A stretch of 64,000 nucleotides of DNA, from contig CAKPLP010000001.1 of NCBI GenBank assembly GCA_934167695.1, positions 31,806 through 95,805 on the forward strand, written 5' to 3'. This document shows positions 7,611 to 47,902 of this stretch, piece after piece. The position numbers and the translations under genes are program-made. This stretch comes from an uncultured Bacilli bacterium (lineage in GTDB: Bacteria; Bacillota_I; Bacilli_A; RF39; UBA660). The notes beneath the pieces were generated by a model. That model saw nothing but the letters and a program-made list of their open reading frames with translations, was not told the origin of the DNA and searched no databases. Numbering within the stretch: position 1 is the stretch's first letter; the number at the start of each line of letters is the position of its first letter.

Positions 7611-7612
7611 CC

Positions 7613-9133
7613 TTAATTATTCTTCTTTGGTTTAGTAGTTACATAAATTACTGCAATACCAATTACTAGAATCATACCACCAATTATATAAATATATATT
7701 GGTATATTCTCTGCAGTATTTGGAACATCTGTAGTTGGAGTATTTTTCATAACTACTTTAGTTATTGTACCATCATCTTTTACTGTAAATGGTACAGATT
7801 CTTTATTAAGTTCATAACCATCTGGTGAAGTAATCTCTGATAATATATAATCCCCTGCAGGTAAACTTACATAATAAGGTTGATCAGTACTTGTCCATTT
7901 AGCAACTTCTTCTCCATTACTATTTTTAATAGATAATTGAGCTCCTGCAACTAGTTTACCATTACTAATATCAGTCTTACTAATTTGAGTAAAATTAACA
8001 TTAATAGTTTTATAAAGTGTTTTATTCACTGTTTTAGCAATAATTGGAATTTGAACACCAGGATCAGATGGAGTATAAGAATAAACCTCATTAGAAGCAT
8101 ATTTTATTGCAACCATAACTTGTAAATTAATTGAATCTGCATCCTTAATTTTTTCAACTGGAATTCTAACTCTAAATTTATTATTAGAAGAAGTAACTCC
8201 TGAACTAGAATTGCCACTTGCATCTACAACAACCGCATCATAAGTATTGTTAGCAAGTCCTATTTGATAATTAATAATAGATAAATTATTTCCTGTAATA
8301 GTAATCTCATTACTCTCTAAATATTTACCATCAGAAGTTAAAGAGTATTTAATACTATCTTTATCAATAGAAATACTAACAGCACCTTGATGTTCTTGAT
8401 TATATTGTACAGCATCATTCGCAAATAAATTTATTGTTCTTGCTACTTCACTTGCTTGACCAGAATCACCAGACAAAAGTAACTTCAACATATTAGAACT
8501 TTGATCACTACTTAATTGCTTATTACCATTACTATCTTTAGCTCCAACCATATCCATATAATACCATATAGCATATTGTGTTATGTATTTTTTACAAGCT
8601 TTAATTTTTTCATCTGCAGACATACCAATTTGCATATCATTAGAAGTAATTGTATAAGTATTATCATCACATCTACTTAAATATTTTGTTGAACCTTCTG
8701 AACCATAACCATTATTTAAAATATAAGCAAGTCCCGGAGCATAAGTATTAGAAACTAATTGAGGATCAGTATATTGAACAGGATTATTTGAAACCATTTT
8801 TTGACCTTCAATACAGTACATTTCATAATTTTGTCCATTTGTATCAGTTGCCTTAAAGTCATATGTCAATGATAACTCAGTTGTTTGATAATATTGATCA
8901 TTCATCAAACTCCAAGCCTTTCCCTGCTCTAATTTTGTTATATTAGAATTCAAAGTTGTTGGTACAATTTCATCAGTAGGCAATGCATAACTGCCCCCAA
9001 TACTATTAGAAGCCATAAACATCGTAAGCATAAAACAAATAAATGTAAATGCTAATACAATATTCGCACTAGACTGTTTATCCAATTTCCACCTTTTTCT
9101 TTTTACTTGTTTTTCACTATTATTAGAATTCAT
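7613..9133 (-). CDS. cell-wall-anchored thioester-domain (TED) adhesin, paralog 1
   Basis: It has a signal peptide and N-terminal YCIEGQ and TQYAIWYY motifs (TED Cys and TQxA(I/V)W Gln motifs). The C-terminus carries a CnaB/SpaA-type prealbumin-like domain (LVAGAQLSIKNSNGEEVAKW...GDYILSEITSPDGYEL). A sorting signal VPNTAEN, a hydrophobic stretch and a KPKKNN tail follow. Confidence 0.65.
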   Translation of the reverse strand: MNSNNSEKQVKRKRWKLDKQSSANIVLAFTFICFMLTMFMASNSIGGSYALPTDEIVPTTLNSNITKLEQGKAWSLMNDQYYQTTELSLTYDFKATDTNGQNYEMYCIEGQKMVSNNPVQYTDPQLVSNTYAPGLAYILNNGYGSEGSTKYLSRCDDNTYTITSNDMQIGMSADEKIKACKKYITQYAIWYYMDMVGAKDSNGNKQLSSDQSSNMLKLLLSGDSGQASEVARTINLFANDAVQYNQEHQGAVSISIDKDSIKYSLTSDGKYLESNEITITGNNLSIINYQIGLANNTYDAVVVDASGNSSSGVTSSNNKFRVRIPVEKIKDADSINLQVMVAIKYASNEVYSYTPSDPGVQIPIIAKTVNKTLYKTINVNFTQISKTDISNGKLVAGAQLSIKNSNGEEVAKWTSTDQPYYVSLPAGDYILSEITSPDGYELNKESVPFTVKDDGTITKVVMKNTPTTDVPNTAENIPIYIYIIGGMILVIGIAVIYVTTKPKKNN

Positions 9134-25162: not shown

Positions 25163-25909
25163 CTAATCATATATAGAATAAAACCCTTTACGAAACATAC
25201 CTTCTTTAATTTTTTGTTCTAATTCTCTACCCTCATATTTTTTAGATAATCTCTTCTTTAATTTTTCATACTCTTTATTTTTTAATTCATTATCATCCAA
25301 AAAAGATTGTTCTAAAATGACCTTATCAATAATACTCTTTGAAAAACCATCCTTCATCAAATCAGAATATATCTTTCTTTTTAATAAAGTATTACTTTTA
25401 CTATGGTTAGATCTAATAACTTTTAATACTATTTTTGAGGCCTTTTCATATTGTAAATTACTATCATATAAATTTAAAACATCATCAATAATGGAATTAT
25501 CTATTCCTTTTTTTTGCATCTCAACTCTTATTCTATTAGGTCCATGTGATGTAGTAATTAATTGTTCATTAAAAAAACTATTAGCATAAACCGAATCATT
25601 CAAATACCCTTGTTGTAATAATTTATTAATAACCTCTGAAACATCATCAATATCAAAATTATCTTTTATAAGTTTATTTTTAACCTCTAAAGTACTACGA
25701 CTACGAACATTTATATACTTAATTGCCTTATAATAACATTGCCAAAATTTATTTTCATCTAATAATTTTTTATATTGTTTCTCATCTATTTCTTTTTTTA
25801 ATAATAACTCCTCTTTTAAAATAACCTCTTCATATAGTTCTACACTACAACAATCAAATTCTATTAAATATTTATTATCTTTAAGTTTCTTATACTTTAT
25901 AATTTTCAA
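25163..25909 (-). CDS. recX: RecX-family regulatory protein
   Basis: It has the three-repeat helical architecture, with SRSTLEVKNKLIKDNFDIDDV, EQLITTSHGPNRIRVEMQKKGID and KRKIYSDLMKDGFSKSII matching RecX repeats. Confidence 0.6.
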   Translation of the reverse strand: MKIIKYKKLKDNKYLIEFDCCSVELYEEVILKEELLLKKEIDEKQYKKLLDENKFWQCYYKAIKYINVRSRSTLEVKNKLIKDNFDIDDVSEVINKLLQQGYLNDSVYANSFFNEQLITTSHGPNRIRVEMQKKGIDNSIIDDVLNLYDSNLQYEKASKIVLKVIRSNHSKSNTLLKRKIYSDLMKDGFSKSIIDKVILEQSFLDDNELKNKEYEKLKKRLSKKYEGRELEQKIKEGMFRKGFYSIYD

Positions 25910-26300: not shown

Positions 26301-26480
26301 AAATTTTACTATTTAAATTGTGAACAAGAACCACATTGAATATTACTTACTACATTTTCTTCACAACATGAATATTCTGGTCTATAAGTATGACGATAAA
26401 CATGATGATTAATTATTCTAGTTCTAATAGGGCATACATGTGACTTTCCCTTTTTGATAGACAAAAAACGAGTATTAAAT

Positions 26481-26506
26481 ATTTAAATACTCGAAAAAAT
26501 ATCTTA
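26481..26506 (-). terminator. intrinsic terminator of the 26514..27062 gene
   Basis: CGAGTATttaaatatttaatACTCG is followed by TTTTTT on the minus strand. Confidence 0.5.
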
Positions 26507-26513
26507 TCTATTT

Positions 26514-27062
26514 TTATTCATTCTTATCAAGAGTTAACTCACCTGTTGTTATAACCAAGCTATCATAATTAGAATCAACTAAATTAAAACTTCTAGTTTT
26601 TGGTGCAGCATTAATAAGTTCATGAGTACTTGTCTCCTCAACTAAAGTAGTAGTTATTAAATCACTAGAGAATTCATGATTCCCATCAGAAGATAATTGC
26701 TTGAAATATACATTAATTGTACCATTAGCATCAACAGGCAAATTACTAAATACTACATTACCAGAATCATCAGAAGTCTGAACATTTCCATATTGATTAC
26801 CCTCAGCATCTACTCTAACAAAAGTAGCACCTACGATAGGAACACCAGCTACAGTTCCATCTTCTGAAACATGTAAAGTTAAAACACCTTTTGCTGCTAT
26901 CGTAAAGTTATAAATAGTTTCAGTATCAGTAACATTAATAGATGATGGTGTTATTGTAGAATTATCATAACCCAATACATTTGCAGTAACAGCATATTCA
27001 CCATTTAATACCTTTTCTTCCGCTACACCGTTAGTAATATTTATAGTGTATTTTTTTGACAT
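26514..27062 (-). CDS. hypothetical protein (possible beta-sandwich/CnaB-like fold); cargo of the recombinase element
   Basis: 182 aa, Thr/Val/Gly-rich (GTVAGVPIVGATFVRVDAEGNQYGNVQTSDDSGNVVFSNLP). Its stop overlaps the start of the next gene. Confidence 0.4.
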   Translation of the reverse strand: MSKKYTINITNGVAEEKVLNGEYAVTANVLGYDNSTITPSSINVTDTETIYNFTIAAKGVLTLHVSEDGTVAGVPIVGATFVRVDAEGNQYGNVQTSDDSGNVVFSNLPVDANGTINVYFKQLSSDGNHEFSSDLITTTLVEETSTHELINAAPKTRSFNLVDSNYDSLVITTGELTLDKNE

Positions 27063-27373
27063 AAAATAATTTTTCCTCCCTTAATAATTAAATCTTGATA
27101 ATATTTATCATGCAGAATAATCGTGGAGGTTTTTGTCAAATTATTATAAAAATCAAAATACAACTCATCCTGATTTTTAAACTTTTCTAAATAAGAATAC
27201 GGATAATAATAAGGACTTTTAATACCAATATAACCATCAAAATATTTATCTAAATATATATTAGTTTCCCCATAAATTTTTTTCTTATCTATAACATCAC
27301 CATTATTATTATAAATTAATAATTCAAATTCTCTATTTAATAATTGATTATTCAATCTGCATCTTATTAACAA
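27041..27373 (-). CDS. hypothetical protein; cargo of the recombinase element
   Basis: 110 aa, overlapping the downstream gene by 22 nt. Confidence 0.35.
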   Translation of the reverse strand: MLIRCRLNNQLLNREFELLIYNNNGDVIDKKKIYGETNIYLDKYFDGYIGIKSPYYYPYSYLEKFKNQDELYFDFYNNLTKTSTIILHDKYYQDLIIKGGKIILCQKNTL

Positions 27374-27448
27374 AATACACCTCCTCTATTATCTAATATA
27401 TAATATGTACTTAATAATTTTTTGTATAGATAAATACCTCTTAACACA

Positions 27449-28999
27449 TCACTTTCCAAAGGTTAAAATCAAATTTATTCTCTTATCGTCAAATATTTCA
27501 ATTTTTTCAATCAACTGAACAATTAATTCCCTACTTACATTAGACATACTTAAATAATCATTAATAAATTGTTCTACAAAAAATTTTTCTTTAACTTTTC
27601 TCTTTTCCAAACTAGTTTTCTTTAAATAAACCCGTCTACTATTTTTAATTTCTAAATTTTTATATATCCTATCTTTAACCCTAGAAAATTGTTCATCATC
27701 TATAACCTTATTTAACTTATCTATATATACTTCATCCAAATTTTCATTCAACTTATTAATTTCTAAATTAAGCATATTAATTTCTTCTTGTATATTATCA
27801 GTTTGCATGTTAGATAATTCTTCATTAATACTTTTCTTTATTTTTTCAACATCAATAAAATTAAACAAAATTTTTTTTAATTCACTAATAATCTTTTTCT
27901 CCAACAAGTCATAATTATTAGAATGCGTTGTACATACTTTCTCCTTAATATATGCTCTATAATAATTACAAACAGTATAACAATTATTATCTTTTTTTCT
28001 CCTTGAAGTAACAGATATTCTATGACCACAATCACCACAATATAACAATCCATCTAATAAATGTTTTTCTTTTTTTTCACAACGACCCACATTTTTAGGA
28101 ATCAACTTCTGCACCTCAAAAAAAGTATTTCTATCAATAATTGCTTCATGAGTATTTTCAACTACTATATATTTACTAGGATCATTTCTAGCAATTTTCT
28201 TTATTTTATAATTAATTTTATATCTTTTGCCTTGAACCAAATCCCCTATATAAATTCTATTAGTTAAAATATCCTTAATCGTTTTAGCATTCCAACTTCC
28301 AATTTTTAATGAACTATTCTTTTTCCAAACAAAATTATAATATGCAGAAGGATTTTTTACATTTTCAATAGTCAATATTTTTGCAATTTTAAAACAAGTT
28401 AACCCTTCTAAACACATTTTATAAATTCTTTTAACAACTTCAGCTTGGGAAGAATCTATAATCAAATGATTCTTATCAAGAGGATCTTTTTTATATCCAA
28501 ATGCTACTCTACCACTCACCCACTTCCCTTCTTTTTTTTTAGCCATCAAACTAGATCTTATTTTTTTTGAAATATCTTTAGCATACATATCGTTCATTAT
28601 AGCCTTAAAAGGAGCTATATCATTATTGGAACTATCTAAAAAGGTATCAATATTATCAGTAATAGCAACATATCTGACATTATGAGAAGGAAAATATTTT
28701 TCTATAAAGTTTCCTGTTTCAATATAATCCCTACCCAATCTAGACATATCTTTCGTAAGAACCATATTAACATTATTATTTTCAATATCACTAAGTAACT
28801 TCTTAAACGCAGGTCTATTAAAATTCGTACCACTATAACCATCATCTATATATATATCATAAATAGATAAATTATTTTCTTTTACATATTGAAGTAGTAA
28901 ACTCTTTTGATTAGTAATACTTTCACTTTCTTCTTTACTATCTAAATCCTCATGTGACAATCTAATATAAACACCAACATTAAAGACTATATTATTCAA
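27449..28999 (-). CDS. large serine recombinase (resolvase/invertase catalytic domain, recombinase domain and zinc ribbon)
   Basis: The N-terminus GVYIRLSHEDLD...SITNQ has the catalytic Ser in the Y.R.S motif. A central recombinase domain is followed by a Cys cluster YCGDCGHRISV...C..C. It has a TTG start with an AAGGGA RBS. Confidence 0.85.
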   Translation of the reverse strand: MNNIVFNVGVYIRLSHEDLDSKEESESITNQKSLLLQYVKENNLSIYDIYIDDGYSGTNFNRPAFKKLLSDIENNNVNMVLTKDMSRLGRDYIETGNFIEKYFPSHNVRYVAITDNIDTFLDSSNNDIAPFKAIMNDMYAKDISKKIRSSLMAKKKEGKWVSGRVAFGYKKDPLDKNHLIIDSSQAEVVKRIYKMCLEGLTCFKIAKILTIENVKNPSAYYNFVWKKNSSLKIGSWNAKTIKDILTNRIYIGDLVQGKRYKINYKIKKIARNDPSKYIVVENTHEAIIDRNTFFEVQKLIPKNVGRCEKKEKHLLDGLLYCGDCGHRISVTSRRKKDNNCYTVCNYYRAYIKEKVCTTHSNNYDLLEKKIISELKKILFNFIDVEKIKKSINEELSNMQTDNIQEEINMLNLEINKLNENLDEVYIDKLNKVIDDEQFSRVKDRIYKNLEIKNSRRVYLKKTSLEKRKVKEKFFVEQFINDYLSMSNVSRELIVQLIEKIEIFDDKRINLILTFGK

Positions 29000-29100
29000 T
29001 ACATCTCATCCCTTATTTTTCTAATCAATAGAGCAATAATTTTTTCATTAACATCATCATTATTATCACTAAATATAAAGTTAATTTTATAATTATTCAT
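28996..29100 (-). CDS. small ORF (34 aa) whose stop overlaps the recombinase start
   Basis: MNNYKINFIFSDNNDDVNEKIIALLIRKIRDEMY with a GAGGGA RBS. Its function is unknown; it could be an RDF-like protein or a gene fragment. Confidence 0.25.
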   Translation of the reverse strand: MNNYKINFIFSDNNDDVNEKIIALLIRKIRDEMY

Positions 29101-29176
29101 AAAAATCCCTCACTAAATATTGTATACTTAATAAATATGAAAAAAACTTAGAAAATATCAATTCTAAGTTTAAAAA

Positions 29177-31792
29177 TTATAACCATTCACCATATTTATT
29201 AATATATAACTTCTTAATAAGAGAAACTATTACAAAATATATTAAAATTAAAAATGCTAAATAAAAATAAAAATTTAAAGGTAATATAACAAAATGAAAA
29301 GTATCAATTTTATATAGTATTAATGGTGTAATAATAGTTAGAACAAATGAAAATAATGTTAATATGTTAAGCTTAAAACTAGCATTAGATTCTATAAATG
29401 GCTTTTTAGAAGTTCTTACATTGTAAATAATCATTAACTCAGTTGCAAGACAAGTAACAAACCAAGCAGTTTGAAAATATGCCTGTTTATCAACACTATT
29501 ATATTTGAAAACAAACCAAAATATTATAAATGATATAACGTCTATCAAGGAACTAGTAATTCCCATAACCTTCATAAATCGCGATATTCCCTTAGTATCC
29601 CATTTCTTTGGTCTTTCTAAAAATTCATGATCAACATTATCATAAGGAATCCCAATTTGAGAAAAATCATATATAAAATCCTGAAGTAACATTTGAATAG
29701 GTAAAAGTGGTAAAAATGGTAAGAAAATACTAGCAATCATAATACTAAAAACATCACCAAAATCAGCACTCAAAGCCATTTTCATATATTTAATAATATT
29801 ACCATAAACTTTTCTTCCTTCAATTACACCATCATACACAACCTTTAAACTTTGTTTTAAAATAATAATATCACTAGATTCTTTAGCAATAGATGAGGCC
29901 GTATTAACAGATATTCCAACATCTGCTTTACTTAAAGATGGTGCATCATTTACTCCATCACCCATATAACCAACAACATGACCATTTTTTTGGTATAAAC
30001 AAACTACTCTCTCTTTTTGCAACGGATTCATACGTGCAAAAACATCAATACTTTCTAATTTAGATGATAACTCATCATCACTCATTTTATCAATATCACT
30101 TCCAAGTAATATATCATCACCATTTAACCCAACCATATTACAAATATTTCTAGTTGCATAAGGATTATCTCCTGTTAAAATTTTAGTTCTAATACCAACC
30201 TTATATAAATTAGATAAAGTTTTCTTTACATCTTTCTTAGCAGGATCCAAAAATCCTACAAAACCTACAAATACCATAGATTTTTCACAAGAAGCATCAA
30301 ATAAATCCTTTCCCGGATAATTATTTTTCTCAGAAAGAGCAATTACTTGCATTCCATCATTGGCAAGTTCCATCGCTTTATCTTTAATTATTGTAATCAT
30401 ATCAGAATTTATAGAAGTAATTTTTCCATTTATTTTAACCCTATCACAATCATTAATAATTTCTTCCAAGGCACCTTTAGTTATCATACGATAAGAATTC
30501 TTATTTTTAACAACAATACTTTGTTTCTTACGAGTATAATCAAAAGGAATTTCATCAACCTTCTCATATTTTTCTAATTTTTCAGTAATTGAATGTTCAT
30601 TACCATAAACAATTATAGCTCTATCCACTAAATTTTTAATTCCTGTACTATAATAACTATTTAAAAATGCATACTCTAAAATATCGTCATTTTCCTTTCC
30701 CTCAGCATCAATATATTTTTGTAAAGTTATTTTGTTCTCCGTCAGTGTACCCGTTTTATCTGTACATAAAACATCTATTGCCCCTAAATTTTGAATAGAT
30801 TCTATTTTTTTGACAAGCGTTTTTTTCTTAGCCAAACTTTTACTACCTTTAGTCAAGTTAACATTCAAAATCATAGGTAACATACTTGGAGTTATACCAA
30901 CAGCAACAGAAAGAGCAAATAATAGTGCCTCATTTATATTTCTTTTTATAAAACCATCTATTATAATTACAACTAGACAAACACAAACCATATACCTAAT
31001 TAACAACTTCGAAATACTATTAATTCCTTTATCAAAATTAGTTATCTCTTTTTTATTATAAACTTCATTACCAACTTTACCTAAATAAGTATCAAAACCA
31101 GTAGAAATTACAACACCTTCACCTCTACCGCTAACTACAGAAGATCCCATAAGACAAATATTACTTATATCAAATATTTCATCAGCATCTAAACTTTTAA
31201 CATCCTTTTCTACATAAATACTCTCACCTGTAAAAACAGATTGATTAATAAATAAATCTTTACAATCAATAATTTTTATATCAGCCGGAATAATAGTACC
31301 AGCATTAAGCTTAACTATATCACCTACAACAACATTTTCAACTTTTACCTCTTTTTCAATACCATTTCGTTCCACATTAACAGTAGAATAAATACTACTT
31401 TTCAATTTTTTATTAAATTTATAAACAGAATAATCCTGAATAAATCTAATAAATGCGCTAATAAAAGCAATAATTACAATTATTAAAGAACCTAAATTAT
31501 CTCCTAAAAATAAATTTATAATCGCTAAAAATAATAAAATAATAATAAATTCATCCTTAAAAGACATAACAAAAAAATATAATGGACTCTTATCATCATC
31601 CTTTACTACAACATTCTTTCCATATTTATTAAGTCTTTGTTTAGCATCAATATCACTTATACCAGAATATGAAGAATTATATTTATTTAAAATTACATCA
31701 ACATCATCTTTAGAAATATCTAAATATTCTTTAAACATTTCATGATCATCTTTTTTTTGATCATTTTTAACTTTTTTATTAAATATATTCAT
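29177..31792 (-). CDS. mgtA: magnesium-translocating P-type ATPase
   Basis: 871 aa with DKTGTLT (phosphorylation site), TGDN and GDGVNDAPSL, and 10 predicted TM segments. Confidence 0.85.
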   Translation of the reverse strand: MNIFNKKVKNDQKKDDHEMFKEYLDISKDDVDVILNKYNSSYSGISDIDAKQRLNKYGKNVVVKDDDKSPLYFFVMSFKDEFIIILLFLAIINLFLGDNLGSLIIVIIAFISAFIRFIQDYSVYKFNKKLKSSIYSTVNVERNGIEKEVKVENVVVGDIVKLNAGTIIPADIKIIDCKDLFINQSVFTGESIYVEKDVKSLDADEIFDISNICLMGSSVVSGRGEGVVISTGFDTYLGKVGNEVYNKKEITNFDKGINSISKLLIRYMVCVCLVVIIIDGFIKRNINEALLFALSVAVGITPSMLPMILNVNLTKGSKSLAKKKTLVKKIESIQNLGAIDVLCTDKTGTLTENKITLQKYIDAEGKENDDILEYAFLNSYYSTGIKNLVDRAIIVYGNEHSITEKLEKYEKVDEIPFDYTRKKQSIVVKNKNSYRMITKGALEEIINDCDRVKINGKITSINSDMITIIKDKAMELANDGMQVIALSEKNNYPGKDLFDASCEKSMVFVGFVGFLDPAKKDVKKTLSNLYKVGIRTKILTGDNPYATRNICNMVGLNGDDILLGSDIDKMSDDELSSKLESIDVFARMNPLQKERVVCLYQKNGHVVGYMGDGVNDAPSLSKADVGISVNTASSIAKESSDIIILKQSLKVVYDGVIEGRKVYGNIIKYMKMALSADFGDVFSIMIASIFLPFLPLLPIQMLLQDFIYDFSQIGIPYDNVDHEFLERPKKWDTKGISRFMKVMGITSSLIDVISFIIFWFVFKYNSVDKQAYFQTAWFVTCLATELMIIYNVRTSKKPFIESNASFKLNILTLFSFVLTIITPLILYKIDTFHFVILPLNFYFYLAFLILIYFVIVSLIKKLYINKYGEWL

Positions 31793-31976
31793 ATCAATAC
31801 CTTCTTTATAATTAAAAGTATATCACAAAAAAGTAACTTAAACTCATTGCATTAAAAAAAATGTAAAAAATAGTCTTATATTTTTACAAACAACTACTTT
31901 TAATATCGAAGGAAAAGCCGCACTAATAGTATCACCCCTATTAAGTGTTTTTTTATCTTCAAATTTATATCTAACA

Positions 31977-32150
31977 TTAATAAGTACCATTTATAGTAAC
32001 ATTAACTTTAGAACTAGAAATTTTAATTCCACTATCTAATGTAATATCACTACCAAAATAAACATAATCATAACCATTGTCATTTTCTAAAACAGATTTT
32101 AACTCAGCACTAGAAAAGACAACCACCGTATTATTATCAATAATAGTCAT
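31977..32150 (-). CDS. small ORF (57 aa) in the mgtA upstream region; not in the ORF track
   Basis: MTIIDNNTVVVFSSAELKSVLENDNGYDYVYFGSDITLDSGIKISSSKVNVTINGTY with an AGGGTGA RBS. It could be a leader peptide or the remnant of a larger gene. Confidence 0.25.
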   Translation of the reverse strand: MTIIDNNTVVVFSSAELKSVLENDNGYDYVYFGSDITLDSGIKISSSKVNVTINGTY

Positions 32151-32240
32151 AGAATCACCCTAATATATGATATGATACTCAATCATTTATAACAATTTCA
32201 TCCAACTATTTTTATATAATTAATAATCTATCATAAAATA

Positions 32241-32459
32241 TCATACATGTGGTACCTCATGCATAATAGTTCTATGAACACAACGCTCTTGTGGGCATTC
32301 ACTAATTGGTGCAGTATAACCACCCATCATAGTACTGTTATCAATATTTTCTTGTTGCATCATATTAATATCAATGTCATTATAATTTACTCCATTATCT
32401 CCTGTATAACTATTATCAAATTCAAAATTATTCATGTTCGTATTTTGTCTATCAAACAT
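32241..32459 (-). CDS. small Cys/His-containing protein, possibly spore-coat-like
   Basis: 72 aa counted from the ATG, which has a GGAGGA RBS. The C-terminus reads APISECPQERCVHRTIMHEVPHV. Any relation to CotD-type coat proteins is a guess. Confidence 0.35.
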   Translation of the reverse strand: MFDRQNTNMNNFEFDNSYTGDNGVNYNDIDINMMQQENIDNSTMMGGYTAPISECPQERCVHRTIMHEVPHV

Positions 32460-32540
32460 CTCTTTATCCTCCAATCTAGTTTATTGTATGTATAATTCTA
32501 TATAGTGCCTATTATTAAAGCCCAAAAAAATAAAAACACC

Positions 32541-33848
32541 TTAAAAAGGCATTTTCATTCTTCCATTTGTAAATTGTTTCATCATTTTTTTCATTTGATC
32601 AAACTGTTTTAATAATTGGTTTACCTCCTGAACACTAGTTCCACTTCCCTTTGCTATTCTACTTTTACGACTAGCTTTAATAATATCTGGATTACGTCTT
32701 TCCTGAGGAGTCATAGATAAAACAATAGCCTCAACATGATCCATTTGTTTAGGATCAATTTTAACTTGATTAAGCCCCATCTTACTAGCACCGGGAATTA
32801 GTTTTATCAAAGATTCTAAAGGTCCCATTCTTTTTAACTGTTTTAATGTATTCAAGAAATCTTCCAAATCAAATTTTCCATTCTGCATTCTTTTGGCAGC
32901 TTTCTCAGCTTCCTTTTCATCAATAGCATCTTGAGCTTTTTCAACAAGTGAAACAACATCACCCATTCCTAAAATTCGACCTGCCATTCTTTCGGGATCA
33001 AAAGAGTTTAAACCATCAAGTTTCTCACTTGTACCAATAAACTTAATAGGAACATTAGTAAGATGCCTAACAGAAAGAGCAACACCACCCCTAGTATCAC
33101 CATCAAGTTTTGTTAGAATAACACCTGTTAATGGTAATTTATCATGAAAACCAGTAATAACATTAATAGCATCTTGTCCCATCATAGAATCTATTACTAA
33201 AATAATTTCTTCTGGATTTATTTTAGTATTAATATTAATAAGTTCATCCATTAAATCATCATCTATATGAAGACGACCAGCGGTATCGATTAAAACATAA
33301 TCAAAACCATTTTCTTTTGCATATTTAATAGCATTAGAAGATATTTCAACAGGATTATTCTTTTCTTCATCATATACTTCTATATTTAATTGCTTACCTA
33401 TTTGCTTTAACTGATCAATAGCCGCAGGTCTATAAACATCACAAGCAACAAGTAATGGTTTTTTCGCATGTTTTTTTCTTAAATAATTAGCAAGTTTTCC
33501 AATAGTTGTAGTTTTACCACTACCTTGAAGTCCAACTAACATTAAAATAGCTGGATTACCATTCATATTTAATGGTGCACTTTCACCACCTAATAACTCA
33601 GTAAGTTCATCATTAACAATCTTTACAAATAAATCACCCGGATTAATACTAGTTTGAACTTCTTGACCTAAAGCTTTCTCCTTTACAGTATTAGTAAATT
33701 GTTTAACAACTTTATAATTAACATCAGCTTCTAGTAACGAAAGACGAATCTCTTTCATTACATCATTAATATTATCTTCAGTAATTTTTCCATAACCCTT
33801 CATTTTATGAAGTGCACTTTGTAATTTATCACTTAAACTTTCAAACAT
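32541..33848 (-). CDS. ffh: signal recognition particle protein Ffh
   Basis: An NG domain (GLQGSGKTTT, DTAGR) and a C-terminal M domain (Met-rich). Confidence 0.9.
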   Translation of the reverse strand: MFESLSDKLQSALHKMKGYGKITEDNINDVMKEIRLSLLEADVNYKVVKQFTNTVKEKALGQEVQTSINPGDLFVKIVNDELTELLGGESAPLNMNGNPAILMLVGLQGSGKTTTIGKLANYLRKKHAKKPLLVACDVYRPAAIDQLKQIGKQLNIEVYDEEKNNPVEISSNAIKYAKENGFDYVLIDTAGRLHIDDDLMDELININTKINPEEIILVIDSMMGQDAINVITGFHDKLPLTGVILTKLDGDTRGGVALSVRHLTNVPIKFIGTSEKLDGLNSFDPERMAGRILGMGDVVSLVEKAQDAIDEKEAEKAAKRMQNGKFDLEDFLNTLKQLKRMGPLESLIKLIPGASKMGLNQVKIDPKQMDHVEAIVLSMTPQERRNPDIIKASRKSRIAKGSGTSVQEVNQLLKQFDQMKKMMKQFTNGRMKMPF

Positions 33849-33892
33849 TTTTCTTCACCAATTTATATTATAACAAAAAAGAGCTATTATAA

Positions 33893-36475
33893 CTAGCCCT
33901 TAATCTCATCCTCTGTTACAGCTTTACCACCAAATCCTTCTAAAAGAGCATTACTAACATTTTGTCCACCCGGTATAATTACTGCTGGCTTTTCTACCTC
34001 TTGTTTTACATCTGGAATAATAGCAGATTGATTAGAAGCAAATTGTTGATTCAAAGAAACATTAGTACTGTTTTCAGGAGGAGCCATATTAGGTACAAAT
34101 ACATCTACATCAGGGATAATTGATTGAGTTTGATTATTATCAGTACCATTTACAATTTGATTTAATTCATTATTTTCTAAATCGGCACTACCTCCTAAAT
34201 CAGGAATACTAGAAGTAGTATCAACAACATTATCAACTTGTTTATTATTTACATCAACCTCTGCAACAGGACTAACAGCCTCCATTAAATTAGGTTTCTC
34301 ATCTTTAAACAAAGGTATAGCAACATCATTAGTAGGATTATTATTAACTATATTATTTGATAATGAATTATTAAATGGAGAAACATTAGTAGATTGTTCA
34401 ACAAATTTTGGAATTTGAATCTGATCATCACTACTAGATTCATTATCTTCTTCATTTATTTCATCTTCTTCTGTATCTTCATCATCTTCGTCAACTTCTT
34501 CTTCGACTTCATCATCCTCAGCATCAACAAAAGTGACATTATTCTTCAAAGTACTTTCTACATTATTAACACTATCGGTATTATCAACATTTTTATTTTC
34601 ACTACCTAGATCAACAGGAGAAGATACAGACTCTTCTTTAGAAGCTTCTTCTTTTTCAGACTCTAATTCACTAACATCTTCATCATCACTTTCTTCATCC
34701 TCATCATCCTGATAATTACCTTGATTACCATCCCAAATACGTACAACATCACAGTTACCACTTCTAGGTTCAGGATTAGGCATTTCCATCTTAACTATTA
34801 AAGGTATCTTAAAAGCTTGACCAAATGCTAAACAAGTTCCTGCCTGTAATGATTTTTGTTTTTCTACAATTTCTTCACTAATATTAGGAACCATTTTTCT
34901 AATATATTCAACATCAGCAGGGTGATTCATTTTAAAGATCAAGAAGTTAGAGCATTGAGAAATAACTGTATCACTCATTTCAACAGGTCTTTGGGTTATC
35001 AAACCAAGAATAACACCATATTTACGACCCTCTTTTGCAATTCTATCAAAAATATTATATCCAATTAAGAAAGTATCAGTATCATTTTGAATATATCTAT
35101 GAGCTTCTTCAACTATTAAATGAAAAGGTATGCTCGCTCTATCACCTAGACTCTTCGCAAAAGTAAAAATAAGTCTAGAATAAACTTTAACAATAACCTT
35201 TGCAAATGTATCATCCACATCATCTAAATTAATATTAACTAATTGAAATTTTCTACCATTAACAATTAATAAAGAAGATATAAACTGCTCTAAACTAACA
35301 TATTCTTTATAATCAAAAAACTTAGCATTATTACCAGTAATTAAAGAATGAAGTCTTACCTTAATAGTAACAGAATCACCATAAGTATTTTCATTTCTTA
35401 ACCATCCTTCACTTATTAAAGTAAAATTCAAAGCTTTCTCCAAAGTATCTAAAGTATAAAAAACATTGCCACTTGGTTCATAAGAATCATATTCATCCTT
35501 TATAAAAGATGATACATATTCAGTCATTAAAACACTTTCAGTAAAATTACCAAACTGATCTATCAAAAAGCAATCTCTAAACTTTCTTGTATAACCAATA
35601 CCTTTAAGTTCAGTCTCTAAGTTAAACTCTGGAGTTGAACAACTTGCTATTATAGAAAAAATCTCATTTCTCTTATTAGGAGATGTTTCATTAGTATATA
35701 AAATAGTCATAATAGCCTTTGCAATCAAATGATTTTTATAACTATTAGAATCAACCCCTTTTTCAGAAAAAATTCTAGCAAGCTTTAACATTCTTTCTAT
35801 AATAGGTAATTGTGAATGACTAGTAACATTTAAAAGAAGAGCTAAATCATCAACATTAAGTAAATAAATAGGAATTCTTAAAGCTTCACCTAATCCTTCA
35901 GACTCATTAGTAGTAATAAATCTATAATTATAATTAGGATTAATAGTAGACAAATTTCTAAAAGCATTATAATACTCACCAGATGAATCAAACATTAAAA
36001 TATTTGATTTATATGGAAATAATCTTTGATCTTGAAACATATTCTGAAAAATTCTACTAACACCACAACTCTTTCCAGAACCACTATTACCAAAAATAGC
36101 AAAATGGTTACTAAAGAATCCATTAACATTCATAAAAACTTCTTTATCATTATAAAAAGGGCTCTTACCAAACAACATATAACCACGTCTATTTTTACCT
36201 GTAATAAGAGGTATTTCCTTTGGAGAAATAACCCTAACACTAGCATCTAAAGTTGGTTTACGAATTACTCCACCAAGTAACCCCTTATCTGTAATTTCCC
36301 CCAATAGACGAACCTTTACTATATCCTTTGAAATATCATCAACTTCACCTAATATTTTTTTATCTTTATCCTCAAAAATGATATGTAAATTCATCAAATT
36401 AAAAGTTATATCAGCATTTTCTTTTAACTTAACATCACAAACTCTATCCCCTATATAAACAATTTTATCAAACAT
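33893..36475 (-). CDS. HerA/FtsK-superfamily (DUF87-like) P-loop ATPase with a long acidic disordered C-terminal tail
   Basis: An N-terminal HAS-barrel-like segment is followed by Walker A GNSGSGKS, Walker B HLIVEEAHRY and the ITQRP motif. About 280 C-terminal residues are D/E/N/S-rich and low-complexity. Confidence 0.65.
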   Translation of the reverse strand: MFDKIVYIGDRVCDVKLKENADITFNLMNLHIIFEDKDKKILGEVDDISKDIVKVRLLGEITDKGLLGGVIRKPTLDASVRVISPKEIPLITGKNRRGYMLFGKSPFYNDKEVFMNVNGFFSNHFAIFGNSGSGKSCGVSRIFQNMFQDQRLFPYKSNILMFDSSGEYYNAFRNLSTINPNYNYRFITTNESEGLGEALRIPIYLLNVDDLALLLNVTSHSQLPIIERMLKLARIFSEKGVDSNSYKNHLIAKAIMTILYTNETSPNKRNEIFSIIASCSTPEFNLETELKGIGYTRKFRDCFLIDQFGNFTESVLMTEYVSSFIKDEYDSYEPSGNVFYTLDTLEKALNFTLISEGWLRNENTYGDSVTIKVRLHSLITGNNAKFFDYKEYVSLEQFISSLLIVNGRKFQLVNINLDDVDDTFAKVIVKVYSRLIFTFAKSLGDRASIPFHLIVEEAHRYIQNDTDTFLIGYNIFDRIAKEGRKYGVILGLITQRPVEMSDTVISQCSNFLIFKMNHPADVEYIRKMVPNISEEIVEKQKSLQAGTCLAFGQAFKIPLIVKMEMPNPEPRSGNCDVVRIWDGNQGNYQDDEDEESDDEDVSELESEKEEASKEESVSSPVDLGSENKNVDNTDSVNNVESTLKNNVTFVDAEDDEVEEEVDEDDEDTEEDEINEEDNESSSDDQIQIPKFVEQSTNVSPFNNSLSNNIVNNNPTNDVAIPLFKDEKPNLMEAVSPVAEVDVNNKQVDNVVDTTSSIPDLGGSADLENNELNQIVNGTDNNQTQSIIPDVDVFVPNMAPPENSTNVSLNQQFASNQSAIIPDVKQEVEKPAVIIPGGQNVSNALLEGFGGKAVTEDEIKG

Positions 36476-36536
36476 ATTGCCCCTTCTTCCTCTTCATATT
36501 TTCTACTTAAATTATACTATTATATTATTTCTAAGT

Positions 36537-36830
36537 CTAGTTACTATCTATAATATTTTTTATCTGTTTACAAATATCACTATCATCTAAAATAGATTCT
36601 ATTCTATTTTTTTTATCACAAAGCTTCAATTTACTTTCATAATCATCTAATAAATTTTTAGTAATACTAACTTGTCTATAAACAGCATTTCTACTAACAC
36701 CATAATTTTCAGCAATTTCACTAAAAGATAAATTATCAAAGTAATAATCTTCAAAATACTCTTTTTGCTTTACAGTTAATAAATTTTTATATAAATCATA
36801 TAATTCACTATAATAAATAACCTCTTCCAT
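36537..36830 (-). CDS. ylxM: YlxM/UPF0122 putative DNA-binding protein
   Basis: 97 aa containing FSEIAENYGVSRNAVYRQV (sigma-70 region-4-like). It is the conserved partner gene upstream of ffh. Confidence 0.75.
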   Translation of the reverse strand: MEEVIYYSELYDLYKNLLTVKQKEYFEDYYFDNLSFSEIAENYGVSRNAVYRQVSITKNLLDDYESKLKLCDKKNRIESILDDSDICKQIKNIIDSN

Positions 36831-36831
36831 A

Positions 36832-37086
36832 TTATGCTCCTAATAACTTAACAACATTATATATAATAAGAGCTACACCAATAAAAACATATAACAATGT
36901 CATATTTTCTCTCTTATAAAATAATTTGTTATTATAACCCATAATTAACAAATCAAGTCCTAAACAAATACCTAAATAACAAATATAACTATTATTAATA
37001 AAATACATAATAAGTAAAACAATAGCAATAATTGATACAATGGCCTGTAAATATAAAGTAATTAAATTCTTTTTCTTCTTCATCAT
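36832..37086 (-). CDS. small membrane protein (2 TM)
   Basis: 84 aa, hydrophobic, lying between ftsY and ylxM. Confidence 0.4.
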   Translation of the reverse strand: MMKKKKNLITLYLQAIVSIIAIVLLIMYFINNSYICYLGICLGLDLLIMGYNNKLFYKRENMTLLYVFIGVALIIYNVVKLLGA

Positions 37087-37092
37087 ATACTC

Positions 37093-38106
37093 CTATAAAT
37101 CTTTAAATAATCCATAAATATATTTTTCTATATCAAAAACCTGTAAGTCATTCTGCCCTTCACCAAGTCCTATATATTTAACAGGAATATTTACTTTCTC
37201 CTTTATAGCCAAAACTATTCCACCTTTAGCAGTACCATCTAATTTAGTAAGAACAATACCAGTTATTGGAGTAATCTCTTTAAAAGAAATAGCCTGACTA
37301 ATTCCATTTTGCCCAGTTGTAGCATCAATAACTAACAAAACTTCCTGTGGAGCAGATGGTATTAAAGATGAAATTACTCTATTGATTTTTTCTAGTTCCT
37401 TCATTAAATTAACCTTATTTTGAAGACGACCAGCAGTATCAATAAATACTACATCATACTCATCATTTAAAGCTTTTTCAACTCCATCATACACTACACT
37501 AGCAGGATCACTATTTTCCTTACCATAAAAATCAACATGATCTCTATCAGCCCATTCCTTTAACTGTTCAACTGCACCTGCTCTAAAGGTATCAGCACCA
37601 ACCAACAAAACCTTTTTACCTTCATCCTTCATTTTCTTTGCTAATTTACCAATAGTTGTAGTCTTACCAACTCCATTAACACCTACAAATAAAACTACCG
37701 TTGGACCATTATCATTATAGTTAATTTTATTAACAATAACATCATCATTAACATAAATAATAAATAATTCATCAACAATTATTTCCTTTAAAAGTTCAGG
37801 GCTTTCAATACTTTCATGTTTAACACGATCCTTAAGTCTATCAATAAAATCTTCAACAGTACTAACTCCAATATCAGCCATAATAAGAATTTCTTCTAAT
37901 TCATCAAAGTATTCTTCATCAATTTTTTTATATTTATTAGTTAAATTAGCTAAACGAGAAACAAAGCCTTCTCTAGATTTTGTAAGACCTTTTTCATAAA
38001 CTTCTATTTCTTCTTTTTGATCACTTTTCTCTGATAAATTCTCATCATCAACAACCTCATTATTCTCTTTATTAAAAATTGTCTTTATCTTACTAAAAAA
38101 TCCCAT
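37093..38106 (-). CDS. ftsY: signal recognition particle receptor FtsY
   Basis: An NG domain (GVNGVGKTTT, DTAGR). I set the start to MGFFSK. Confidence 0.85.
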   Translation of the reverse strand: MGFFSKIKTIFNKENNEVVDDENLSEKSDQKEEIEVYEKGLTKSREGFVSRLANLTNKYKKIDEEYFDELEEILIMADIGVSTVEDFIDRLKDRVKHESIESPELLKEIIVDELFIIYVNDDVIVNKINYNDNGPTVVLFVGVNGVGKTTTIGKLAKKMKDEGKKVLLVGADTFRAGAVEQLKEWADRDHVDFYGKENSDPASVVYDGVEKALNDEYDVVFIDTAGRLQNKVNLMKELEKINRVISSLIPSAPQEVLLVIDATTGQNGISQAISFKEITPITGIVLTKLDGTAKGGIVLAIKEKVNIPVKYIGLGEGQNDLQVFDIEKYIYGLFKDL

Positions 38107-38209
38107 TCTTATCACCAATAACATTTTAACATAAAGAAATAAAGAAATAAAGAATATGTAAAAGACAATATAAAAAAAGTTTACACTATAGTAAACTATA
38201 AATAATTAA

Positions 38210-43996: not shown

Positions 43997-45028
43997 TTAT
44001 TTACCAGTTCCCTTTTTTGGCTCATCTAAACTTATTTGATAATATTCTCTAACCTTTTTCTCAATTTCATTTTTTAAATCAGGATTATCCTTTAAAAGTA
44101 ATTTAACATTTTCTTTTCCTTGTCCCAATTTTTCACCTTGATATGAATACCAAGCACCAGTTTTTTCAACAATTCCAGCTTCTACTCCAAGGTCAATAAC
44201 TTCTCCTTCTTTACTAACACCTTCACCATACATAATATCAACAACAGCAGTTTTAAAAGGAGGAGCAACCTTGTTTTTAACAACTTTAATATTTGTTTTA
44301 TTACCTACTACCCCATCACCCATTTTTAATTGTTCACTACGTCTAACTTCAAGTCTAATAGTAGAATAAAATTTTAAAGCTCTACCACCCGGAGTTGTTT
44401 CTGGATTACCAAACATAACTCCAACCTTTTCACGTAATTGATTAATAAAAATTGCTATTGTATTAGTTTTACTAATCGTACCTGATAATTTTCTTAATGC
44501 TTGACTCATCAATCTTGCTTGAAGACCTACATGAGAATCTCCCATTTCTCCATCAATTTCAGCTTGAGGAACAAGTGCTGCTACTGAGTCTATGACAACA
44601 ATACTAATAGCCTGACTTTTAACTAAAGCATCGCATATCTCCAAAGCTTGTTCACCAGTATCTGGTTGACTAAGAAGCAATTCATTAATATTGACACCCA
44701 ACTTTTGTGCATACACAGGATCAAGAGCATGCTCTGCATCAATAAAAGCTGCACGACCACCTGATTTTTGAACAGATGCAATAGCTTGTAAAGCAAAAGT
44801 TGTTTTACCACTTGATTCAGGTCCATAAATTTCAATAATTCGACCACGTGGATAACCACCAACACCTAAAGCAATATCAAGAGATAAACATCCACTTGAA
44901 ACAACATCAACCTTCATGTGTTTATTTTCTCCTAACTTCATAATTGAACCTTTTCCAAATTGTTTTTCAATATCCATTAATACTTGTTCTAGAGCTTTAT
45001 CTTTATCATTAATTTCTGTTTTTTTCAT
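43997..45028 (-). CDS. recA: recombinase RecA
   Basis: GPESSGKTT Walker A and a highly conserved RecA sequence throughout. Confidence 0.95.
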
Positions 45029-46309: not shown

Positions 46310-46665
46310 AAATAATATTTAATAAGCCATGTTCTGTACCTTAAAAGGTGACAAACATTTATCTACTGATTTCTCAGTCCCTAACATTGGTTCTTAATTT
46401 CCTAGTTAAAGCTCCCCTACCATAATTTGGGTTTCTCACTCGTGGAGTTTACCGCGTTTCACTTCTTAATTTCTTAAGAATTCGTCACTGTGGCACTTTA
46501 TAGGTAACAATCATATCATTGACTTAGATTATCACCTAGTCGTTAGAATTATCTACCTTAGGTTATTTTTTTCCTAAGCACGAACACTACAAACATCACA
46601 GTTTGTGTGAGCATGGACTTTCCTCAATACTCTTTAAGAGTACCGCGTTTGTCTAAAATATTATT
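46310..46665 (-). ncRNA. rnpB: RNase P RNA (type B); ends approximate
   Basis: The minus strand contains GAGGAAAGTCCATGCTCACAC (P4 5' strand), GTAGTGTTCGTGCTTAG, AAAGTGCCACAGTGACGAA, GTGAAACGCGGTAAACTCCACGAGTGAGAAACCCAAATTATGGTAGGGGAGC and ACAGAACATGGCTTA (P4 3' strand). These closely match B. subtilis RNase P RNA, and the position next to gpsB matches Bacillus synteny. Confidence 0.85.
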
Positions 46666-47328: not shown

Positions 47329-47901
47329 ATGAATTATCCAAATGGTTTAAAGAAAAAAGAAACCTCTTCTAGTATAAATAAAAATTATATAAATTATGCC
47401 AATAGAGGTATGAATTTAGAAGAAGATTTAAACTTAACAAACGAATATTATAGGAAAATAGATAAAGCTTATATTTATAAAAAACCTACTCCAATAAAAA
47501 TTGTAAAGGTGGACTATCAAAAAAACAAAATAACTGAAGGATACTTTGATACCCCTTCAACTACAGATTATAATGGATTATATAAAGGAAAATATATTGA
47601 CTTTGAAGCAAAAGAAACTACATCATTAACATCATTTCCATTAAGTAATATTCACAAACATCAAATAAAGCATCTAGAAAACATTGATAAACATCATGGT
47701 ACCGCCTTTCTAATAGTAAGGTTTACTAAACGAAATGAAACCTATCTATTATTACAAAAAGACTTTAAAAGTTATATAGAATTAAATAAAAGAAAATCAA
47801 TTTCTATAAACTACTTTAAAGAGAAAGGTTATCTTATTAAAGAAAAATATACACCTAGAATAGATTATCTAGAAGTATTAGATAAAATAGGAGGAATATA
47901 A
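47329..47901 (+). CDS. recU: Holliday junction resolvase RecU
   Basis: 190 aa, with conserved RecU blocks (YANRGMNLEE...IVKVDYQ...YKGKYIDFEAKETT) and the recU-ponA operon arrangement. Confidence 0.8.
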   Translation: MNYPNGLKKKETSSSINKNYINYANRGMNLEEDLNLTNEYYRKIDKAYIYKKPTPIKIVKVDYQKNKITEGYFDTPSTTDYNGLYKGKYIDFEAKETTSLTSFPLSNIHKHQIKHLENIDKHHGTAFLIVRFTKRNETYLLLQKDFKSYIELNKRKSISINYFKEKGYLIKEKYTPRIDYLEVLDKIGGI

Positions 47902-47902
47902 A

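Follow-up and report, generated by a model that had tools for sequence, protein, structure and literature searches.

The 860-amino-acid (aa) open reading frame (ORF) located between ylxM and ffh in the 64-kb window analysed here (the whole 64,000-nucleotide stretch of contig CAKPLP010000001.1, assembly GCA_934167695.1, from an uncultured Bacilli bacterium) is, as judged from its sequence and predicted fold, a HerA-type ring ATPase of a narrow, previously undescribed branch in uncultured gut Bacilli of low guanine-plus-cytosine (G+C) content. Taking all observations together, we lean, without strong confidence, towards an effector-less housekeeping DNA-translocating ring ATPase that acts in chromosome handling and carries a tethering tail. 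According to the ORF list, five minus-strand genes follow one another at this locus, and the gene order given in the first-pass annotation, with the 860-aa ORF between ylxM and ffh, was confirmed by the ORF list, Pfam and NCBIfam:

37093–38124, minus strand: ftsY, the signal recognition particle (SRP) receptor (Pfam SRP54 and SRP54_N, E = 5e-76)
36832–37086, minus strand: tm84, an 84-aa small membrane ORF between ftsY and ylxM (ORF list, hydrophobic segments)
36537–36830, minus strand: ylxM, UPF0122 helix-turn-helix protein (PF04297, E = 3e-25; NF045758, 91 bits against a cutoff of 80)
33893–36475, minus strand: herA, gene of the 860-aa HerA-family ATPase, including the stop codon (ORF list, PF01935, PDLC04102)
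32541–33848, minus strand: ffh, SRP54 (Pfam SRP54, SRP_SPB and SRP54_N)

No other start codon lies between that of herA and the in-frame stop preceding it, and a GAAGGGG ribosome-binding site stands ahead of the gene. The G+C content of the region is even, at approximately 27–32%. The only Pfam family matched by the 860-aa ORF was PF01935 (DUF87/HerA; E = 5e-18, 66.3 bits against a cutoff of 23.2), and no FtsK_SpoIIIE, VirB4, TraG or type IV secretion system (T4SS) ATPase model was found in it at E ≤ 0.01. An AlphaFold2 monomer model, built from a 32-sequence alignment, showed predicted local distance difference test (pLDDT) values of about 90 for residues 1–586 and below 50 for residues 587–831, with a small rise at 832–848. 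The folded part measures 585 aa, which corrects the ATPase core of about 500 aa given at first, and comprises the following parts:

36161–36475, minus strand: N-terminal β-barrel (HAS-barrel-like), residues 1–105 (AlphaFold2 model)
34721–36160, minus strand: RecA-like ATPase core, residues 106–585, with a helical insertion at about 222–410 (AlphaFold2, Foldseek)
36068–36091, minus strand: Walker A GNSGSGKS, residues 129–136 (motif search)
35093–35119, minus strand: Walker B and catalytic Glu, LIVEEAHRY, residues 453–461 (motif search)
34985–34999, minus strand: ITQRP, residues 493–497 (QRP 495–497), the putative arginine-finger segment (motif search)

The barrel and the three motifs named in the first-pass annotation were all located as it claimed. 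In the model, the barrel strands span residues 2–8, 12–17, 31–35, 40–49, 52–62, 65–68 and 79–82, with pLDDT of about 90; this part is left unaligned to roughly the first 90–145 positions of the Sir2-type HerA profile. Within the 32-sequence alignment, the Walker A residues G129, G132, G134 and K135 are invariant; among the 92 family members examined, GxxGxGK[ST] is present in all 92, only three or four lack an intact hhhhEEAH, and 89 retain QRP. The arginine-finger role of the QRP segment is assigned by homology with HerA (PMC11514289). The protein thus combines a PF01935 score above the cutoff, a β-barrel preceding the core, and Walker A and B motifs with a putative arginine finger, the features by which the HerA family is recognized, and its motifs indicate that it is very probably an active ATPase.

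When compared to the PDB with Foldseek, the 50 matches listed were all HerA chains (top E = 2e-30, alignments of 600–650 columns), including those of the HerA–DUF4297 (9c1m, 8xau, 8ziq) and Sir2–HerA systems (8yhx, 8wld, 8j4u, 8sub), Sulfolobus HerA (4d2i) and Thermococcus HerA–NurA (9x1m). A PDB sequence search gave the same ranking, with 9c1m, the HerA of a HerA–DUF4297 system (bioRxiv 10.1101/2024.10.24.620088), in first place at E = 5e-43; its matches were HerA-type ATPases of defence systems and archaea, plus TdpA. The best profile was PADLOC PDLC04102 (E = 5e-107, 357 bits), aligning protein residues 93–589 with positions 146–645 of 654. The NCBIfam equivalogs for antiphage and repair HerAs scored between 91 and 158 bits against cutoffs of 800–970, far under the cutoffs, which places the protein in the HerA family outside every named subfamily. 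PF01935, PDLC04102 and the AlphaFold2/Foldseek comparison therefore agree on the HerA/FtsK-superfamily ATPase proposed in the first-pass annotation; among the profile families it had put forward, DUF87/HerA matched, and the FtsK, VirB4 and TraG models gave no match at E ≤ 0.01. The branch is narrow: of 1.84 billion representative proteins scanned in full with HMMER, only 209 reached E ≤ 1e-30, and about 10 of these are full-length relatives at 40% identity or more. A neighbour-joining tree separated the solitary clade from the Sir2-type HerAs, to which, on these sequences, it is the sister group. The sources name these proteins only "ATP-binding protein", and a literature search returned nothing relevant on HerA in RF39/Mollicutes or on a solitary bacterial HerA.

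A genome-collection scan with one genome per species returned 80 herA loci, all from uncultured gut or rumen bacteria, with core identities of 45–91%. The carriers are of low G+C content, and their records call them Bacilli, Tenericutes, Mollicutes, "Clostridium sp. CAG:417" and the like; they probably belong to RF39-like orders. The gene was recovered once per species-representative genome. With the window neighbours as tblastn queries, nearly every locus with a core identity of at least 58% showed the order ftsY-(tm84)-ylxM-herA-ffh, and ftsY lay upstream of ylxM at nearly all related loci. Neighbours were counted only in loci with enough flank, identity being that of the core to the window protein:

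Core identity of at least 55%: ylxM directly upstream in 59 of 66 loci, ffh downstream in 41 of 50
Core identity below 55%: ylxM directly upstream in 0 of 5 loci, ffh downstream in 0 of 5

The ylxM-herA pair is tighter than the herA-ffh pair; in one sub-clade, ylxM was upstream in 14 of 14 loci and ffh downstream in 5 of 11, and the ylxM-herA gap falls to 16 nucleotides (nt) in one sub-clade. Over 41 loci, the core identity correlated with that of the neighbours (r = 0.96 for RNase J, 0.84 for Ffh and 0.79 for FtsY), and the mean conservation of the herA core, 76%, lay between that of FtsY (73%) and that of Ffh (82%). This co-divergence with flanking housekeeping genes, together with the stable synteny, shows vertical inheritance under purifying selection. 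The arrangement ftsY-(tm84)-ylxM-herA-(ffh) is the standing gene order of the lineage and not a fresh insertion. The first-pass annotation had described herA as inserted, a local anomaly, and had stated that routine separation of ylxM and ffh in this clade would speak against that description; herA was found to separate the two genes routinely across at least 60 species-level genomes, and the description is misleading. Its remark that ffh is not followed by rpsP holds more widely, as rpsP was absent by tblastn from the 64-kb window and from the 8-kb flanks of the 80 related loci.

More distant orthologues were found in the following contexts, given with their percentage of identity:

P0123/P0272: 44%, ftsY-tm-ylxM-herA-ffh, as in the window
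P0127, P0126, P0365 and P0282: 44–45%, PP2C-...-herA-sepF-divIVA-...-ileS
P0129/P0277, L068 and L069: 42–51%, between rpmH-rnpA-yidC-jag-mnmEG and dnaA-dnaN-recF-gyrBA
P0130: 40%, after an LtaS-type sulfatase, near enolase
P0128: 42%, after RmuC, in one species only
L073, L075 and L066: 47–53%, other housekeeping neighbours

None of these orthologues (P0123 to P0130 and L066–L075) lies beside Sir2, DUF4297 or NurA. A second abundant lineage of uncultured Bacilli (L086, L087, L092, L094–L097) has sepF-divIVA directly after the orthologue and in the same orientation; the gap between herA and sepF is about 60–110 nt in most contigs, but about 1 kb in L097. A third lineage, of the Clostridium sp. 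CAG:914 type (L068, L069, L089), has a tail-less orthologue in the rpmH-dnaA intergenic position, which in Firmicutes usually holds the DnaA boxes of oriC.

The folded part of the window protein is followed by a long tail, with these features:

33896–34720, minus strand: disordered acidic tail, residues 586–860, 275 aa (composition, AlphaFold2)
34403–34414, minus strand: IPKF motif, residues 688–691 ([ILV]PxF count)
34307–34318, minus strand: IPLF motif, residues 720–723 ([ILV]PxF count), the most hydrophobic 6-mer of the window tail
33926–33988, minus strand: conserved C-terminal motif PAVIIPGGQNVSNALLEGFGG, residues 830–850 (hhPxGQ and LMEGF counts)

The acidic, disordered character claimed in the first-pass annotation was upheld by a net charge of −58 and pLDDT below 50, and the length given there, 280 aa, becomes 275 aa. 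The tail is composed of 13.8% E, 13.1% N, 11.6% D, 11.3% V and 9.8% S, and the PAVIIPGGQNVSNALLEGFGG region is its only part with rising pLDDT (50–59). The frame stays open for 275 codons in DNA of 27% G+C, and its length varies across dozens of species, which is not the behaviour of a chance ORF. As tandem repeats, the tail showed only short codon-level ones (periods of 9–18 nt, scores of at most 60). Tail length among orthologues runs from 0 to about 420 aa. Tails of 23 to about 420 aa are confined to the sub-clade with a core identity of at least about 72% to the window, and other lineages differ again: members of the 58–62% sister sub-clade, in which ylxM is still upstream, and the outgroups end 0–9 residues past PNPEP...W; the sepF-linked lineage has tails of 60–110 aa that are rich in Q, P and M, are not acidic and bear a conserved V..IMAQQ motif; and P0126 has its low-complexity segment at the N-terminus instead. 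Even the near-identical strain variant P0001 differs from the window protein at one position in the core and by seven differences in the tail, including a 4-aa indel. Short motifs were counted in 142 unique tails and compared to shuffles, the enrichment being inflated by the shared ancestry of these related tails:

P[LI][IV]x[ILV]: 80 of 142 tails, shuffle mean 5.6
hhPxGQ: 50 of 142 tails, shuffle mean 0.2
LMEGF: 39 of 142 tails, shuffle mean 0.3
[ILV]PxF: 28 of 142 tails, shuffle mean 9.3

In 83 of 140 tails, the most hydrophobic 6-mer was no more than 40 residues away from the C-terminus, where 21% would be expected. Despite the inflation by kinship, the pattern is, at the sequence level, that of a disordered linker bearing short linear motifs. 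The FtsZ C-terminal peptide, in its core, and the tip of SSB are presumably similar to IPxF, a likeness we take as a lead and not as a test.

According to the reading we favour, the window protein would form a HerA hexamer that, by homology, spends ATP on travelling along double-stranded DNA or on pumping it through the pore at its centre, and its role would be a housekeeping one, the handling of the chromosome in replication, division or sporulation, with no phage-triggered switching of a toxic effector. Judging from the anatomy of the protein, the N-terminal barrel, which docks Sir2 in defence relatives, would have diverged, and the tail would be a lineage-specific flexible tether whose length and composition drift freely. 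The short hydrophobic motifs (IPxF, P-L-V-x-I and IIIPxGQN..LMEGF) would be the functional parts of the tail, probably binding a partner or the ring itself, while the strong negative charge, peculiar to the window sub-lineage, may shield the ring from non-specific DNA.

Several points weigh against this reading. We infer the hexamer, the DNA translocation and the arginine finger from homology only, and the links to division and replication from the gene neighbourhoods of sister lineages, which differ by lineage. All carriers of the herA clade are uncultured. No conserved partner gene was found in the 64-kb window or in related loci, and a partner may be encoded elsewhere in the genome, of which the window covers 64 kb. 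The enrichment of the tail motifs is, as described above, inflated by common ancestry. Finally, P0123 (943 aa), which shares the ftsY-ylxM-herA-ffh synteny, has LLIDNAH for LIVEEAH and GEV for QRP, P0129 has HQP in place of QRP, and the motifs of P0133 and P0138 are likewise degenerate; these cases suggest that ATP hydrolysis may be dispensable in a few lineages and hint at a scaffold role. P0123/P0272, encoded at L088 8001–10832, keeps Walker A, has an even longer, acidic and Ser/Asn-rich tail, and may be a hydrolysis-dead version.

A bolder form of the favoured reading, to which we assign only a small chance, sees in this clade the housekeeping HerA long predicted to have a bacterial counterpart. 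In the RF39-like Bacilli, which are genome-reduced and partly sporulating, it would pump the chromosome as a soluble protein, either in place of FtsK, SpoIIIE or SftA or in addition to them, and the FtsZ-tail-like IPxF and other short motifs of the disordered tail would recruit it to the division or sporulation septum. Such recruitment would account for the orthologues beside sepF-divIVA and dnaA. FtsK, SpoIIIE and SftA are ring DNA pumps of the same superfamily; SftA is soluble and acts at the septum, and a long linker rich in P and Q is present in E. coli FtsK. The sister-lineage HerA orthologues that adjoin sepF-divIVA also carry Q/P-rich tails. In contrast to these pumps, the window protein has its disordered segment after the motor, not before it, and has no membrane domain. 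It has a soluble barrel at its N-terminus and a disordered C-terminus, and PF01580 was not matched at E ≤ 0.01, the γ domain, which reads FtsK-orienting polar sequences (KOPS), not having been specifically looked for; one orthologue carries a "faint" PF01580 mark on record. That the resemblance to FtsK and SftA might be functional is speculation only. RF39-like orders are predicted to include sporulating species (PMC10868615), and the same paper, on sporulation and peptidoglycan in RF39, RFN20 and ML615J-28, makes no mention of FtsK or SpoIIIE.

With respect to the known HerA systems, bacterial HerAs have so far been seen as two-gene modules, namely Sir2–HerA and DUF4297–HerA in defence and HerA–NurA in repair. 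The genes flanking herA in the window (ftsY, tm84, ylxM and ffh) have no Pfam match to Sir2, DUF4297 or NurA, in agreement with the first-pass description of a solitary gene unlike the known defence pairs, and a tblastn search for a Sir2 partner found nothing in the window or the fetched loci except L084, the Sir2–HerA outgroup locus from which the probe was taken. The window protein shares with the Sir2–HerA proteins the three-domain fold (β-barrel, RecA-like core and helical bundle), the Walker A, Walker B and QRP motifs and the C-terminal PNPEP..W end, and they supply both its best-scoring profile, PDLC04102, and its nearest sequence outgroup (30–35% identity). In contrast, the window herA and its orthologous loci have no adjacent Sir2 gene, the window protein carries an added disordered C-terminal extension, and the clade is vertical and chromosomal, not borne on plasmids or islands; instead of a patchy distribution among mobile elements and defence islands, it shows the synteny and co-divergence described above. 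The match to the defence HerA profile was also partial (357 bits from position 146), and NF042944 and NF042943 gave 158 bits against a cutoff of 850 and 148 bits against 800, respectively. On calibration, Sir2-type and related outgroup HerAs, among them the Sir2-adjacent P0135, scored 500–756 bits against PDLC04102 over profile positions 2–650, whereas solitary-clade members scored 245–393 bits and matched only from position 85–147. In Sir2–HerA structures, the HerA N-terminal β-barrel inserts into the Sir2 ring, and deletion of HerA residues 1–35 abolishes binding (PMC11514289). The unmatched profile start is presumed to correspond to this Sir2-docking barrel; if so, the solitary clade would have diverged exactly at the effector-docking site.

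The HerA of the HerA–DUF4297 system was the best match among solved structures by both sequence and fold, and the C-terminal third is strongly similar, including EEAH, RIAKEGRKYG, QRP and SQC(S/N)NF. However, identity over the whole chain is only about 22%, the window herA has housekeeping synteny, there is no DUF4297/Cap4-like nuclease gene nearby, and none of the genes flanking herA matches the DUF4297 Pfam model. The HerA–NurA helicases of the archaeal/Deinococcus type (4d2i, 9x1m) share the fold and superfamily and are hexameric DNA translocases with a housekeeping role, the same as that proposed for the window protein. They are, however, more distant from it than the defence HerAs are (NF040937, 110 bits against 800; NF040819, 91 bits against 970), and no NurA, Mre11 or Rad50 gene lies near the window herA. 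As for VirB4/VirD4, no T4SS Pfam family was matched at E ≤ 0.01, and no conjugation genes are situated nearby.

An alternative that we regard as unlikely is a defence HerA that senses phage DNA or DNA ends and whose effector is unlinked, is functionally fused through the tail, or has been lost, leaving a decaying remnant. It draws on the fact that every one of the closest relatives with a solved structure or a model is a defence HerA, that the nearest outgroup is Sir2–HerA, and that the tail is hypervariable even between strains, as an arms race might produce. Among the relatives, P0135 (35% identity) comes directly after a SIR2_2 gene, in an island that also contains PDDEXK_4, PLD-nuclease and PemK genes, and the best plasmid relatives (about 30% identity, maximum 31%), annotated beside a "SIR2 family protein", reside on conjugative or mobilizable Lactobacillus and Listeria plasmids; phage genomes yielded nothing closer than a terminase. 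A defence role is nevertheless hard to reconcile with the syntenic position and co-divergence with core genes across at least 60 species, with surroundings of the window herA that contain no defence island, integrase or mobile context, with strongly conserved catalytic motifs, which indicate that the gene is not decaying, with the presumed divergence of the effector-docking N-terminus and the lack of a Sir2 gene in the window and in every fetched locus but L084, and with a tail that is missing or differently composed in sister lineages.

We hold it to be distinctly unlikely that the protein is instead a nucleotide-binding scaffold, a ring platform whose six long tails recruit or concentrate proteins, hydrolysis being secondary. 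Orthologues without the catalytic Glu and arginine finger, such as P0123, are kept in the same synteny with a longer tail, and short motifs are conserved amid freely drifting tail sequence, as a scaffold would predict; but the window protein and about 95% of the family keep every catalytic motif, which is hard to explain without hydrolysis, and several lineages are entirely tail-less.

The SRP neighbourhood suggests another role, to which we give little credence, in protein handling or membrane targeting, as a VirB4- or secretion-like motor or a chaperone of FtsY, Ffh or YlxM that is co-transcribed with them. The FtsK–HerA superfamily includes secretion ATPases, herA lies on the same strand as its neighbours with gaps of 61 nt to ylxM and 44 nt to ffh, and its pairing with ylxM is very stable (59 of 66 loci, gaps as short as 16 nt). 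Co-transcription of herA with ftsY, ylxM and ffh is plausible from this layout. Scans of the strand against consensus signals returned the following sites beside herA:

36511–36539, minus strand: promoter-like −35/−10 pair (TAGACT, 17 nt, TATAAT) at the 3' end of ylxM (10 of 12 matches to the consensus)
33879–33901, minus strand: weak terminator-like hairpin over the herA stop codon (8 pairs, 3 of them G-C, then a T-run)

Promoter-like matches were no commoner than in shuffles, which makes the first site a hint only, and the hairpin class, with 2 matches against 1.4 expected in shuffles, was not significant; although neither reaches significance, the two sites flank herA and make a transcription unit of its own possible. 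Rfam found no RNA elements in the herA gaps. The link to SRP or membrane targeting suggested in the first-pass annotation does not hold generally: orthologues at 40–50% identity lie beside sepF-divIVA, rpmH-dnaA or LtaS and not near any SRP gene, and within the SRP-linked clade itself ffh has often left the downstream position (9 of 50 loci), ylxM and herA staying in place. Nor was any VirB4, TraG or T4SS ATPase model matched, as stated above.

That herA is a selfish or neutral passenger hitch-hiking on a highly expressed, hard-to-disrupt operon, also raised in the first-pass annotation, is very improbable, since, although it sits inside conserved core loci in three lineages (SRP operon, oriC region and sepF-divIVA cluster), its core is as conserved as FtsY and co-diverges with the neighbours (58–91% identity with intact active sites, where FtsY falls to 64–81%), and no mobility genes or repeats lie beside it.

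Under the favoured reading, a whole HerA branch without a partner, diverged at the presumed effector-docking end, has been kept as a core gene, with SRP, division or origin genes as neighbours, in uncultured gut Bacilli that are very abundant. Should it prove to be a housekeeping DNA motor, it would be a concrete case of machinery exchanged between immunity and the core of the cell, and a candidate for chromosome handling in genome-reduced Firmicutes, and the variable tails with short conserved motifs would give a direct handle for finding partners.

Regarding the genes that accompany herA, several candidates for a conserved partner were considered and rejected. In loci with a herA-ffh gap of 1–3 kb, the intervening genes differ by locus and include a PD-(D/E)XK/YhgA-like gene, lactate dehydrogenase, fmt and membrane proteins. 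The genes that one sub-clade has inserted there (about 10900–11760 in L055 and L057, and 5613–6482 in L058) may resemble the YhgA/Rpn-type family of recombination-promoting nucleases or transposases, and they show that insertions recur in the spacer between herA and ffh. Where ylxM and herA are about 1 kb apart, the gap holds an opposite-strand ORF of 285 aa in one sub-clade and unrelated genes elsewhere; this conserved ORF, about 235–290 aa long across loci, was seen in L016, L018, L025, L031 and L033 (about 7000–7870), where it ends in ...AIAFGTTLEKL..NYED.KQLIY.P, and as a fragment in L067. RmuC (PF02646) is situated 43 nt upstream of the P0128 herA (L090 4331–7172, L091 1793–4634). It was set aside as a general partner, L090 and L091 being 99.7% identical and from one species, and neither the window nor any other locus containing the gene; in the P0128 lineage it may serve as a nuclease partner. 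The small membrane ORF tm84 had no Pfam or NCBIfam match. Its orthologues are weakly conserved (26–51% identity), occupy the same position in many loci and have a common NN..YKR motif; the family consists of two-helix membrane ORFs of 82–180 aa, some with long Lys/Glu-rich N-terminal extensions.

Downstream of ffh, a His/Cys-rich gene is split by an intervening element:

32242–32474, minus strand: 5' part of the split His/Cys-rich gene, a 77-aa ORF (84% identical to residues 1–79 in L001)
26309–26442, minus strand: 3' part of the same gene (98% identical to residues 78–120 in L001, match 26440–26312)
26443–32241, minus strand: intervening element, 5,809 bp long if one copy of the repeat is included (flanking 10-bp direct repeats)
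29177–31792: P-type ATPase, mgtA-like, in the element
27449–28999: large serine recombinase in the element (Resolvase, Recombinase, Zn_ribbon_recom)

The gene is intact after ffh in most relatives (110–120 aa; 120 aa in L001). The 10-bp direct repeat CACATGTATG stands at both junctions (32242–32251 and 26433–26442), and the element also carries a 182-aa ORF. In-silico excision restored a 118-aa ORF with the joined sequence ...CCACATGTATGCCCTATTAG..., for which a scan of the JGI metagenomes gave no exact match at the excised junction. The serine-recombinase element that splits the gene explains the small Cys/His ORF and the gap after ffh reported in the first-pass annotation, the small ORF being in fact the 5' part of a gene interrupted by 5.8 kb. 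In L003, L030 and L026 the split falls at the same codon, with halves 3.4–4 kb apart, and L003 and L030, the two loci compared, resemble the window in their junction sequences and element ends. In L009, L019, L022, L024 and L034, the mgtA-like P-type ATPase is situated outside the intact His/Cys gene, on either side of it. Its position inside the element in the window and outside in relatives shows rearrangement either of the element's cargo or of this neighbourhood. The reconstituted protein had no Pfam or NCBIfam match; it may be CotD-like or spore-coat-like. The recombinase is presumably SpoIVCA-like, and we take the element to resemble the skin-type elements that interrupt sporulation genes, as in B. 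subtilis sigK with SpoIVCA. By this analogy an uncultured lineage would carry an intervening element of the skin type, and the split gene would mean that skin-like recombinase elements occur in these uncultured lineages.

Elsewhere in the 64-kb window, the sole Rfam match was a class B RNase P RNA (46318–46660, minus strand, 284 bits), and no tRNA genes were found. The window also holds recA (43997–45028), recX (25163–25909), and recU with a class A penicillin-binding protein (47329–50764), which together indicate that the organism is walled and equipped with homologous-recombination genes.

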